A stretch of 64,000 nucleotides of DNA from an uncultured delta proteobacterium (GTDB lineage Bacteria > Desulfobacterota > Binatia > UBA9968): positions 32,001-96,000 of the forward strand of contig CAVTUQ010000037.1 of the NCBI GenBank assembly GCA_963737905.1, given 5' to 3'. Below the pieces are notes generated by a model. That model was given only the letters and a program-made list of their open reading frames with translations, was not told where the DNA came from and searched no databases. Shown piece after piece: positions 51,373 to 54,910 of this stretch (positions are counted from its first letter, which is position 1; every line of letters begins with the position of its first letter). The position numbers were made by a program, and so were the translations under genes.

Positions 51373-52812
51373 ATGTCCGGCAATCCGTCTTGGGGCATTC
51401 TTCCGCGCTTTAGGAAAGCTCCTTTACCACCGCTTGTCAGCATGTGGGCGGCGCTTGGGCCAGGCGTGATCTTCATGGCCTTGGCCCAAGGAAGCGGGGA
51501 GCTGATCTGGTGGCCCTACATCATCGCCAAGTACGGCCTGTCATTTTTATTTCTGCTGCTCCCCGCTTGCCTTCTTCAATTTCCGGTCACTTATGAAATC
51601 GGCCGCTATACGGTGCTCACCGGAGAGAGCATCTTTCAGGGCTTCATTCGCCTGAATCGCGGCTTTGCATTTTTCCTCTGGATCTTGATGACCCTTTCAT
51701 TTCTTTGGTTCGGCGCGTTTGCGGCAGCCGGCGGGACATCACTGGCCGCGCTGACGCATTTCCCGGCGGGTTGGACCCCTAGAGGTCAGACTCTCTTTTG
51801 GGGTTACCTTTCGATGTTTGTGTTTCTGGCAGCGATTCTTCTGAGCAAAGTGATCTATCGCTTGGTCGAAACTTTCATGTGGGCCGTGGCGCTTCTTACC
51901 CTCGTGGGACTTTTGTGGGCGAGTGCCAACACCGAAGCGCTCCGCGCCCTGCCGGCTTTCGCCAAAGGCTTGTTCATTCCCGAGTCGCCGATGCCGAGAC
52001 CCTGGGATCCTGATGACGCAACAAAATTGTTGACCGCGATCACCTTCGCGGGACTGGGCGGATTTTGGACTCTCTTTTATTCCTACTGGGTTCGGGACAA
52101 GGGCGCAGGGATGGCCCATTATATGGGAAGAATCACCGGTCCAATCACGGGCAAAGCCGAGGCGATCCCTTCGTCCGGCGCCGTGCCGGGCGAAGATGAG
52201 GGATTAGCGCACGCCAGTCGCTGGAGACATTATCTGTTTTGGGACGTCAGCATCGGTATTGGGGGAAATCTCCTCACGACTCTCATGACCTGCCTGCTGG
52301 CTTATGCGCTATTATTTCCTAAAGAGCTTCTCCCCCAAGGGTACGAACTTGCGGTCGTCCAGAGCCGTTTTTTCGAAGTGAGCTGGGGTTGGCTTGGAAA
52401 ACTCCTCTTCTTGATCGTCGCCGCGGCATTTCTTTCCGACACTTGGCTCGCCACCGTCGATGCGGTGAGCCGCATTCACACGGATTGCGTTTACGCTTTT
52501 TTTCCACGGACACAGTCCGTGCCGGTCCGCTCCTGGTATTTGATCTTCCTGTTTCTACTCACCGCCATCACCGCCGCTACTATGGGCTTTGCCGAACCCG
52601 GACCCCTGATCCTGCTCTCAGCCGTTATCGGATTCGTGGGTACCGTACTTTTCTCGGTGGCGTTGATTTTTCTAAATCATGTTTACTTGCCGCGGTACTT
52701 GCCTGCCGCCGTCCGTCCCGGCCGCGTCAACTTGGTTTTCCTCTGCATCGCCTGCGCGGCCTACCTACTTCTCGCCATAGCCTACCTTCTGGCCGTCACC
52801 CGCCTCGTTTGA
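51373..52812 (+). CDS. Nramp-like/APC superfamily transporter
   Basis: LGPGVI..GSGELIWWP, RYTVLTGES, ~11 TMs. Confidence 0.8.
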   Translation: MSGNPSWGILPRFRKAPLPPLVSMWAALGPGVIFMALAQGSGELIWWPYIIAKYGLSFLFLLLPACLLQFPVTYEIGRYTVLTGESIFQGFIRLNRGFAFFLWILMTLSFLWFGAFAAAGGTSLAALTHFPAGWTPRGQTLFWGYLSMFVFLAAILLSKVIYRLVETFMWAVALLTLVGLLWASANTEALRALPAFAKGLFIPESPMPRPWDPDDATKLLTAITFAGLGGFWTLFYSYWVRDKGAGMAHYMGRITGPITGKAEAIPSSGAVPGEDEGLAHASRWRHYLFWDVSIGIGGNLLTTLMTCLLAYALLFPKELLPQGYELAVVQSRFFEVSWGWLGKLLFLIVAAAFLSDTWLATVDAVSRIHTDCVYAFFPRTQSVPVRSWYLIFLFLLTAITAATMGFAEPGPLILLSAVIGFVGTVLFSVALIFLNHVYLPRYLPAAVRPGRVNLVFLCIACAAYLLLAIAYLLAVTRLV

Positions 52813-52889
52813 ACGCCTGCCGGCCGATGACTTCGTCGCGCCGAGTTGCAGATGCAAAGGAGATTGGAAAAACCATATCTCGCGCAAAG

Positions 52890-53120
52890 TAATTCATGTA
52901 CCAATCGGTACAACACGGCGGATGAAAATGGTAGCGTCGCATTGCCGAAGGCCAATGACCGGCGGTCGATTTGCGTCTAGCGCCAAGAGCCTGGGCAAAG
53001 TAGGACCCGAGCATTCTAAGGAAACACGGTCTGTTGCTCCCAGTATAGGGAAGCACGCATAAGAGAATCTTTTCAAGACGAGTGCTCCTTTGGTCTTGGG
53101 AAATTAGCTTTCGATAGGGG
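52890..53120 (+). ncRNA. Candidate bridge RNA in IS110 left end
   Basis: Contains TTTGCGTCT, GCGCCAAG, CATAAGAG and AATTA, which match the target and donor junctions; several hairpins. Confidence 0.65.
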
Positions 53121-53128
53121 GTGAGGCA

Positions 53129-54364
53129 ATGCAAGTGATTTACCAACGCTGTTGTGGGTTGGACGTTCACAAGCGAAGTATCACGGCGTGTCGGCTGAAG
53201 TGGTTGGGTAGTGCTTGGGAAAGAGAGATTCGACAGTTTGGGACGATGACCAAGGATCTGCTGGGGCTGGCGGATTGGCTGGCGCAGGAAGGGTGCACGC
53301 ACGTGGCGATGGAATCGACGGGGGTTTATTGGAAGCCGGTCTATAACATTCTGGAAGGGCAATTTGAGTTGCTGGTGGTCAACGCGCAGCATCTCAAAGC
53401 GGTGCCCGGTCGCAAGACCGATGTTCGCGATGCCGAGTGGATAGCGGAGTTGCTCGCGCACGGATTGCTGCGAGGTAGTTTTGTACCACCCGCCGATGTC
53501 CGTGAATTGCGCGAGTTGACGCGGTATCGGAGCTCCTTGGTGCGCGACCGCGCCCGCACCCTCAACCGACTTCAGAAGGTGCTGGAGGCGGCCAATATCA
53601 AGTTGTCGAACGTGGTCAGCGACATCGACGGGGTCTCGGCGCGACTGATGCTGGAGGCGCTGGTGGCGGGACAAAGAGACACCCAAGAGCTGGCCAGCTT
53701 GGCCAAGGGCCGGCTCAAAGAGAAGCGTGCGCAACTGGTAGAGGCGCTCTCGGGTCGGCTGCAGCCCCATCAGAGCTTTCTGATCGCCGAGCATCTGGCG
53801 CAGATCGACTATCTGGAAGGAGCGATCGAACGGCTCAGCGGTGAAATCGAGGCGAGACTGCGCCCTTTTGAGCAAGAGATCGCCTGGCTCGATACCATTC
53901 CCGGAGTAAGCCAGCGCACGGCCGAGGTGTTGTGGGCGGAAACCGGTGGTGACATGAGCCGCTTTGCGAGCGCCCGGCATCTGGCATCGTGGGCGGGTAT
54001 GTGCCCTGGGAACAACGAGTCGGCAGGTAAGCGTCGCACCGGGCGCACGCGTAAAGGCAGCCCGTGGTTGCGTCACTGCCTGGTGGAAGCCGCGCATGGG
54101 GCCGCGCACACCAAGAATAAATATTTGAGCTCCCAGTATCACCGCATCGGTGCTCGGCGCGGCAAGAAGAAAGCTCAGGTGGCGGTCGGCCATTCGATTT
54201 TGGTGATCGCTTATCATCTGCTCACGCGCAAACAGCCCTATTCGGATCTGGGTGCGAACTACTTTGATGAACGCGACCGTCAGGCTGTCACCAAACGCTG
54301 CGTGACCCGGCTACAAAAACTCGGCTATGAAATCAGCTTGGAGAAATTGCAGATGGCTGCGTGA
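53129..54364 (+). CDS. IS110 recombinase (DEDD RuvC-like + Tnp20)
   Basis: GLDVHK, MESTG, KTDVRDA, IPGVS, NESAGK, GSPWLR. Confidence 0.97.
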   Translation: MQVIYQRCCGLDVHKRSITACRLKWLGSAWEREIRQFGTMTKDLLGLADWLAQEGCTHVAMESTGVYWKPVYNILEGQFELLVVNAQHLKAVPGRKTDVRDAEWIAELLAHGLLRGSFVPPADVRELRELTRYRSSLVRDRARTLNRLQKVLEAANIKLSNVVSDIDGVSARLMLEALVAGQRDTQELASLAKGRLKEKRAQLVEALSGRLQPHQSFLIAEHLAQIDYLEGAIERLSGEIEARLRPFEQEIAWLDTIPGVSQRTAEVLWAETGGDMSRFASARHLASWAGMCPGNNESAGKRRTGRTRKGSPWLRHCLVEAAHGAAHTKNKYLSSQYHRIGARRGKKKAQVAVGHSILVIAYHLLTRKQPYSDLGANYFDERDRQAVTKRCVTRLQKLGYEISLEKLQMAA

Positions 54365-54478
54365 CTGTATTTTCATAAGAGACGCAAAATACGCCACGTT
54401 CAAAAAAAACTTTCTTTGCGTGCTTGGCGTCTTGGCGCGATACCGTTTTTTGTCACTAAATTTTTACGGGTTCCGTCC

Positions 54479-54910
54479 CTAAGGACGAGCGAGGGGTTGG
54501 CCGCTCTGGGTGCCGATCCAGATTTCGCCGCCTTCATAAACTTCTTTTTTCCAGATCGGCACTGTTTTTTTGATTTCCTCGATGGCGAACCGGCAGGCGG
54601 CAAATGCAGCCTCGCGATGCGCCGCTGAAACGGCAATGACGACGCTGGGCTCGGTAATCTGAACCGGACCTATTCGATGCACGATGGCCATGCGGCAGAT
54701 CTGCCACTTTTTTGTTGCCTCCTCTCCCAGACGGGTCAGTTCTTTTTCGGCCATTTCCGGATAGGCTTCGTAGTCTAACGCAATCACTTTGCGTCCTTCG
54801 TTGTTGTTGCGGGTCGTACCGATGAAAGTCGCAATGGCTCCCGCCTCGGGGTCGGTGACGAAATCGACCAGCTCTTGAAGACTGATAGGCTTATCGGTAA
54901 CGCGAAACAT
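54479..54910 (-). CDS. moaE: Molybdopterin synthase catalytic subunit
   Basis: FIGTTRN, LDYEAY, HRIG, AAHR, PIWKKE. Confidence 0.95.
   Translation of the reverse strand: MFRVTDKPISLQELVDFVTDPEAGAIATFIGTTRNNNEGRKVIALDYEAYPEMAEKELTRLGEEATKKWQICRMAIVHRIGPVQITEPSVVIAVSAAHREAAFAACRFAIEEIKKTVPIWKKEVYEGGEIWIGTQSGQPLARP

Follow-up and report, generated by a model that had tools for sequence, protein, structure and literature searches.

A probable bridge-RNA homologue in the left end of a two-copy IS110-family insertion sequence from an uncultured delta proteobacterium

Does the long left end of an IS110-family insertion sequence encode an RNA in which the element's target and its own ends can be read? 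The question is raised by a locus in a 64,000-nucleotide (nt) stretch of contig CAVTUQ010000037.1 (assembly GCA_963737905.1, an uncultured delta proteobacterium), called the window here. A first-pass annotation, made from the letters alone, had described this locus as an IS110 bridge recombinase whose core is AG and whose guides can be read in the left end. That general description holds: Pfam and NCBIfam domains identify the recombinase, and guide segments covary with the flanking DNA. The best explanation of all observations, which we consider very probable, is a mobile IS110 element with a left-end bridge-RNA homologue guiding insertion at AG.

The element is 1,492 bp long and occupies window positions 52890-54381, with the right-hand AG (54380-81) included. 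A second copy in the same genome (C25:70280-71771) is 100% identical over the full 1,492 bp. At the left junction GCGCAAAG is followed by TAATTC, and at the right junction CATAAGAG is followed by ACGCAAA. Outside these limits the two copies diverge at once on the right, where the flank of the second copy is similar (GCGCAAAGG), and after 15 common bases on the left; judged by their sequence, these 15 bases are the first unit of a genome repeat and not part of the element. The dinucleotide AG, at 52888-89 on the target side and at 54380-81, is common to both junctions, with no other duplication, and the two copies interrupt the repeat at an identical position, each bordered by AG on both sides. 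A contig from soil DNA run X1 spans 52876-54381 with 0 differences and ends exactly at the right boundary, 54381. Because the two copies, their flanks, the empty sites and the contig end agree, the boundaries can be accepted, and so can the AG core and the empty site, GCGCAA-AG-ACGCAAA, of the first-pass annotation. We therefore regard this as an intact, recently mobile IS110-family insertion sequence, with the same confidence as the explanation of which it forms part. Its non-coding DNA comprises 239 nt upstream of the gene and 17 nt downstream, and its 8-bp subterminal inverted repeat lies 32 nt inside the left end; on the right, 3 nt and the core come after it. The main features of the element are as follows.

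52890-54381, plus strand: insertion sequence, delimited by the two identical copies, their diverging flanks and the X1 contig
52922-52929, plus strand: subterminal inverted repeat ATGAAAAT, partner of ATTTTCAT at 54369-76; invariant or nearly invariant alignment columns, used as an anchor in 66 loci
53129-54364, plus strand: recombinase gene, 411 amino acids (aa), with matches to PF01548, PF02371, NF033542 and IS621
54369-54381, plus strand: right end, made up of ATTTTCAT (subterminal repeat), then AAG, then the AG core; relatives have ATTTTCA, 4 nt and the core, and multi-copy sets diverge right after

Another soil run, X3, holds a variant of 52884-54381 with 66 differences and a higher summed depth. 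A contig joint from 52784 to 54501 was also seen in X3. A second joint, from 52889 to 54403 in an X2 contig, was considered as an excision product and rejected, as its 20 other letters and 4 mismatches mark another copy of the repeat.

The recombinase matches PF01548 (DEDD RuvC-like; 1.4e-32, residues 9-154) and PF02371 (Tnp, Transposase_20; 1e-22, residues 254-337), and it scores 287.5 bits, against a cut-off of 140, with NF033542, the NCBIfam model of IS110-family RNA-guided transposases. We take the motif GLDVHK, which lies outside the phmmer alignment described below, to hold the first catalytic D. The nearest solved relatives are distant, namely IS621 (8wt6; E = 3.2e-11, 46.2 bits) and ISCro4 (9t56; E = 5.4e-10). 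The phmmer alignment to IS621 places AMESTG, KTDVRDAE and NNESAG opposite IEATG, KTDTVDAR and YESGS, so that the E, D, D and S catalytic positions are matched (four of five). The text on IS621 names these residues E60, D102, D105 and S241 (Hiraizumi et al. 2024, PMC11208158). IS4321 is no closer than IS621 (26% identical, 52.8 bits), and with the protein equidistant from the two, similarity favors neither the IS110 nor the IS1111 clade. A tblastn search of plasmids returned no named ISfinder relatives. Two further distant IS110-family genes are present in the same genome (G000:C26:211962-212394 and G000:C33:31193-31958; 67-75% identical over pieces of the query DNA).

The target is a repeat resembling repetitive extragenic palindromic (REP) sequences. 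This REP-like repeat consists of three 8-nt units, GCGCAAAG, RCGCAAAG and ..CGCCAAG (full pattern (ATAT)CTCGCGCAAAG / RCGCAAAG / ..CGCCAAG), and is scattered through the genome, often with an inverted copy. The sequence GCGCAAAG occurs 660 times in the 6.7-Mb genome, and uninterrupted GCAAAG[AG]CGCAAA sites number 45, against about 0.4 expected by simple arithmetic. When reconstructed, the empty site forms an imperfect palindrome with a folding energy of -30.7 kcal/mol (shuffled sequences, -19.3 +/- 3.3), and the insertion point lies in its 5' arm, between two convergent genes.

52875-52889, no strand: left target half, the first unit of the REP-like repeat (ATATCTCGCGCAAAG); 15 nt identical at both copies, with the target-side copy of the AG core at 52888-89
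54382-54441, no strand: right target half and an inverted repeat copy at 54416-40, from flank comparison, repeat listing and palindrome fold

In the discovery scan each species was represented by one genome; it yielded 79 loci whose recombinases are 51-69% identical and whose record titles name Acidobacteriota, Chloroflexota, Cyanobacteria, Bacillota and others. With the window added, 66 loci had both anchors, 49 of these had both junctions and 31 were non-redundant; loci with gaps, a short flank or no matching core were dropped (L010, L012, L013, L014, L023, L024, L025, L029, L060, L062, L063, L068, L074 and L078). For replication, 80 metagenome loci were reduced to 65 with 255 nt upstream, to 36 with junctions and to 27 that were non-redundant against the first set, among them L093, whose left junction looks mis-assigned when inspected by eye and which was kept. 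Guide regions were scored by their longest match, register-free, in an element's own pair and in non-cognate pairs, and the 31 discovery elements were also scanned column by position. Paired match scores below refer to the 31 discovery and the 27 replication elements, in that order.

The upstream regions of the relatives can be aligned with the left end of the window element. Common to their left ends are CATG, a hairpin, a box resembling CACC, and ATGAAAAT, which recurs inverted at the right end as ATTTTCAT. The right ends have ATTTTCA, 4 nt and a dinucleotide in common, and multi-copy sets diverge thereafter. Across the 58 non-redundant elements the core dinucleotide is AG in 47, AC in 6 and AA in 5.

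Several relatives (L007:1252-1265; L009, L064, L065, L071 and L076) have a left flank that resembles another family member's right end (TTTTCA, 4 nt, AG), with no recombinase gene upstream of it in the available stretch; such flanks may be solo right ends, or may reflect a preference for inserting beside them. In L052/L053, L019 and L079 copies stand in tandem, head to tail, or a right end is joined to a left end: one copy's right flank is the left end of the next, or the left flank is the element's own right end. In L010, 18 nt of the right end (CCCCTGATTTTCAGGAGA) are duplicated in tandem 3' of the stop codon. In L087, a 96% identical relative, an extra AG stands at the right junction between the right end and the same repeat target (CATAAGAG, AG, GCGCAAAG).

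RNA structure was read from DNA covariation, and on this basis the 239-nt left end appears to be a homologue of bridge RNA with two pseudo-symmetric internal-loop modules. The model consists of a terminal hairpin and the two modules, both of which comprise a closing stem and an inner hairpin. Among the 31 relatives 87.6% of cells are paired, against 72.5% in shuffles, where 0 of 500 attain this figure, and 32-45% with slid partners, and 24 of the 29 modelled pairs have changed on both sides. Alignment obscured the stem that closes the second module; an alignment-free test found at least 7 of its 8 pairs in 30 of the 31 relatives, at a constant offset of 9-14. The symmetry of the modules is visible in their motifs, T-R-G-N-G-C ... 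A-G-C-C-Y-G in the first and T-G-T-Y-G-C ... A-G-C-A-C-G in the second. In the 95.6% variant of run X3, the 11 differences listed between 52942 and 53082 leave every modelled pair intact: 53082 G>A converts U-G into U-A, 53041 C>T converts C-G into U-G, and 52977 C>T falls within the first target guide.

52898-52911, plus strand: terminal hairpin immediately 3' of the conserved CATG in the left end; all 5 of its pairs have changed on both sides, and 94.9% of cells are paired
52964-53007, plus strand: target-binding module, closing stem 52964-67 / 53004-07; 4 of 4 pairs change on both sides
52979-52992, plus strand: conserved small hairpin containing GCGCCAAG, structural and not a guide; 100% of cells paired, closing pair G-C in 22, A-U in 7 and G-U in 2
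53009-53087, plus strand: donor-binding module, closing stem GAGCATTC (53009-16) / GAGTGCTC (53080-87), inner stem 53033-37 / 53053-56 and hairpin 53038-51; helix 6 is 97.1% paired

The loop segments of the first module match both strands of the target and covary with it. The 5'-side segment, G1, is the exact reverse complement of core and right flank at the window copy (9/9), and at the second copy, read from its flank, it has 8/9 with one U-G wobble. Such a match had been proposed for TTTGCGTCT in the first-pass annotation, and it exceeds chance in both sets: the G1 region matches the reverse complement of its own core and right flank by 4.52 against 3.15 for non-cognate pairs, and by 4.44 against 3.29, with 7 of the 31 reaching 6 nt compared with 2.3% of non-cognate pairs. 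On the 3' side, G2 has the sense of the left flank, the core and the first 2 nt of the element (GCAAAG+TA). Its columns match in 20-29 of the 31 elements, positions 52995-98 corresponding to the left flank and 53001-02 to the first two element bases (28/31), and its own matches far exceed the non-cognate ones (8.10 against 3.46; 7.67 against 3.68). Compared base by base with the first two bases of the left end, the 2-nt extension agrees in 43 and 44 of 47 elements, where shuffled means are 28.5 and 13.3. G1 and G2 are not adjacent; they stand on opposite sides of the conserved small hairpin.

52970-52978, plus strand: guide G1, TTTGCGTCT, reverse complement of core and right flank
52995-53002, plus strand: guide G2, which would pair with the bottom strand; from the column scan and guide tests

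Five close relatives with recombinases 86-96% identical illustrate natural reprogramming, as left flanks ending GCAAAG, ACACAG and CACAGAG each go with a G2 of the same letters. Thus L089/L118 have the left flank ...ACACAG and the G2 ACACAG, and L091 has CACAGAG in both places, together with the right flank ACACAGA and a G1 of TCTGCGTCT (8/9).

In the second module, G3 (CATAAGAG) has the sense of the right end and core (54374-81), an identity that the first-pass annotation had also pointed out and that is beyond chance in both sets. Columns 53060-63 match the right end in 30-31 of the 31 elements, and the region scores 7.61 against 3.81 and 7.59 against 4.05, with 27 of 27 reaching 6 nt in replication. 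A 2-nt extension is weaker here (21 and 27 of 57, against 17.5 and 16.9 shuffled). By symmetry the 5' side of this module would be expected to read the top strand of core and left end. This is not so: the segment in the position equivalent to G1, here called G4, matches in sense a box located 23-29 nt inside the left end and 3-4 nt before ATGAAAAT. In the discovery set its own match is 6.48/8 against 5.03 for non-cognate pairs, and 16 of 31 own pairs reach 7, compared with 11.6% of non-cognate pairs. Of the donor arms, the right end is matched by G3 and the core-proximal left end by the 2-nt extension of G2 only, with G4 matching the subterminal box. In the replication set the four segments gave z = 6.5 (G1), 17.4 (G2), 17.4 (G3) and 2.9 (G4). 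A regular-expression anchor for the donor-loop motif was discarded after it found the wrong module in many loci, and alignment columns were used instead.

53058-53065, plus strand: guide G3, which would pair with the bottom strand
53022-53029, plus strand: segment G4, AAACACGG
52912-52918, plus strand: left-end box AACACGG, same sense as 53023-29; z = 6.8, with the G4 region only

These features suggest how the element may move. It would have inserted into the 5' arm of the REP-like palindromic repeat between the two convergent genes, guided by an RNA produced from its left end. G1 and G2 of the target module would pair with the two target strands, G2 running 2 nt into the left end in the manner of a handshake; G3 of the donor module would pair with right end and core, and G4, on the 5' side, might hold the box beside the 8-bp subterminal inverted repeat. 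The element would form a circle, and the DEDD/Ser recombinase with this RNA would carry out the chemistry that joins the circular right-end/left-end junction to the repeat at the common AG.

Several observations weigh against such a system. The only contigs from an RNA library (X15) come from a ~93% variant and may represent DNA or read-through; contigs revealed no circle junction; and a sigma-70 scan of 52700-54600, made on the linear sequence and not on joined ends, found 0 promoter-like sites (the accompanying terminator scan found 1 terminator-like site, within the gene). Folded as a single sequence, the RNA does not surpass shuffles (z = -0.26), a result that is uninformative, and Rfam returned no match, the sub-threshold hits to STnc240 (26.1 bits against a gathering threshold of 55) and mir-512 (18.5 against 94) being judged chance. 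G1 matches in relatives are often partial, with a fixed-register mean of 4.55/9, a scoring that under-counts given that guides differ in length by about 1 nt. A search of every RNA region in both sets found no guide antisense to the start of the left end, and neither set has a guide for the core-proximal left end beyond the 2-nt G2 extension. Finally, the G4-box signal is weak in replication, where 20 of 27 own pairs reach 6 nt and so do 50% of non-cognate pairs; the lower value (z = 2.9) arises because most members have one sequence in common.

This last point bears on the rival that survives best, which concerns G4 alone. The identity of G4 and the box could be a feature of the RNA itself, such as a regulatory switch or a leader mimicking the loop, or a relic of internal duplication, and not reflect donor pairing. 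Besides the weak replication signal, the orientation is odd for a bridge guide: paired with the bottom strand, G4 would have its 3' end directed away from the core. Against this, G4 has no complementary RNA partner, its best complement being no better than that of shuffled guides; it covaries with the box and with no other part of the element or its flanks; and the box keeps a fixed distance from the subterminal repeat. We give an explanation other than donor pairing an appreciable chance, though one below even.

A second rival holds that the geometry is that of IS621 and that its mirrored appearance comes from a misread strand or from the left and right conventions of the papers. The IS621 conventions used here were taken from the text of the papers, which leaves room for such a misreading. 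IS621 expresses its bridge RNA from the left end and has a CT core (Durrant et al. 2024, PMC11208160); its left target guide (LTG) is at 50-58, its right target guide (RTG) at 77-80 and the handshake at 81-82 (Hiraizumi et al. 2024, PMC11208158). Much is alike: a DEDD plus Tnp recombinase, an RNA encoded in a long left end upstream of the gene, two pseudo-symmetric modules each built of stem, guide, stem-loop and guide, a 5'-side guide of 9 nt, a shorter 3'-side guide followed by a handshake-type 2-nt extension that matches the other DNA partner, a core dinucleotide common to donor and target, and a REP-like target. Unlike IS621, the protein is distant (E = 3.2e-11) and has 411 aa compared with the 328-residue IS621 chain; the core is AG in the sense of the RNA, not CT; the subterminal inverted repeat is 8 bp and not 2-3 bp; and no guide was found for the core-proximal left end. 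The guide order is also mirrored, with the top-strand guide first: G1, on the 5' side, is antisense to the right flank, the right-end guide stands on the 3' side, and G2 and G3 have the sense of left flank and right end, an arrangement that does not fit the IS621 geometry. Read on the opposite strand, the scheme becomes that of IS621 with a CT core, and the invariant A of AG, AC and AA corresponds to the nearly invariant T of IS621. From the guide senses and the AG core it therefore follows that the recombination site is inverted relative to RNA and gene. Both guide orders exist in nature, since the seekRNA work places the top-strand match first in the IS1111 type and second in the IS110 type, and allows that the IS110 group may conceal additional families (Siddiquee et al. 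2024, PMC11187229). Given these guide positions and senses, ordinary IS621 geometry is quite improbable here.

The mirrored layout recalls the IS1111 type as described in the same text. As there, the top-strand match (G1, 52970-78) is 5' of the bottom-strand match (G2, 52995-53002), and there are subterminal inverted repeats with a 3-nt extension, plus core, between the right repeat and the end. Unlike the IS1111 type, the long non-coding region is upstream of the gene and not downstream, the recombinase has 411 aa and not 330-350, both of which fit Siddiquee's IS110 type, and the repeat is 8 bp long and 32 nt inside the left end, where IS1111 elements have an 11-13 bp repeat with 7-bp left and 3-bp right extensions. 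IS4321 of plasmid R751 (L086:14475-14729) served as a test of the method: its downstream non-coding region contains AAAACGGAA, a 9-nt reverse complement of the right flank, and 3 nt after it CTCATT, the reverse complement of left-end bases 2-7. The top-strand match was thus found in IS4321, with no clear bottom-strand match (5 nt only). ISPpu10 of Pseudomonas putida is similar in being IS110-type, with bridge-RNA-guided insertion into a palindromic REP stem-loop, and differs in that it is described with IS621 pairing logic and a CT core (10.64898/2026.03.19.712850).

We propose, tentatively and as somewhat less than an even chance, that a widespread clade of IS110 recombinases of ~405-420 aa, to which this element belongs, has a distinct bridge-RNA architecture. 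In it the site would be inverted with respect to transcription, giving a core that reads AG and a top-strand guide in first place, and the donor loop would hold the left end away from the core, at a programmable 8-nt box next to the 8-bp subterminal repeat. Systems of this kind have been known since 2024, and the mirrored layout is a variant, which we did not find described in the text passages and abstracts covered by our search. A set of 86 covariance models for 32,190 bridge RNAs, many unlike that of IS621, has been reported (10.64898/2026.10.21.760802), and the architecture may already be catalogued there (Fig. S12) or in Durrant 2024 (Extended Data Fig. 10c).

The anatomy drawn in the first-pass annotation differs from the one presented here, and we hold it to be very improbable. 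It had two adjacent target guides, TTTGCGTCT and GCGCCAAG, and placed CATAAGAG and AATTA on either side of an inner hairpin, CAAGAC/GTCTTG, closed by GGAAGC/GCTTTC. In its favor, all eight motifs it named are present where it placed them, each once in 52881-53140, and both perfect 6-bp complements exist in the window copy. Alignment of other copies and their flanks gave the same boundaries and target, and left-end covariation returned a scaffold, not these hairpins: they are paired in 50.0% of cells, against 47.1% in shuffles and 31-46% with slid partners, and they clash with the covarying stem 53009-16 / 53080-87 and with the hairpin 53038-51. The two remaining guides do not covary. As a left-flank guide GCGCCAAG scores 2.84 against 2.94 (0/31 reach 6 nt) and 2.70 against 2.78 (0/27), the true guide being GCAAAG+TA beyond the small hairpin, and the tail with AATTA matches the reverse complement of the left-end start no better than non-cognate tails do (3.71 against 3.60; 3.59 against 3.48). 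L087, with the same target and left end, has an altered loop in the small hairpin and reads GCGCTTCG and AACTA in the places of GCGCCAAG and AATTA.

Just as improbable is the view that the matches resembling guides play no active part, being for instance pieces of the target repeat caught in the left end, while the protein alone picks the site: the genome is indeed rich in CGCAAAG units, among them the many occurrences of GCGCAAAG, and the left end has TTTGCGTCT beside a GCGCC-like stretch, but relatives with unrelated targets keep the scaffold and change the guide positions with their own flanks, and the family is annotated as RNA-guided (NF033542).

A mobile IS110 element guided to AG by a left-end RNA remains the preferred reading. 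As a natural example it is clean, with readable guides, two fresh copies and 45 spare target sites in one genome, and its close relatives have been retargeted by changing guide positions only. Bridge recombinases are under development as programmable DNA-insertion tools, and their orthologue diversity is actively mined. Should the features described here already stand in published figures or supplements, this would be an ordinary new family member. If the distinct architecture is true, the geometry of the donor synapse would differ from that solved for IS621, and the mirrored order in an upstream-encoded RNA, together with a donor segment that tracks a subterminal box, would widen what is known of how RNA holds DNA.

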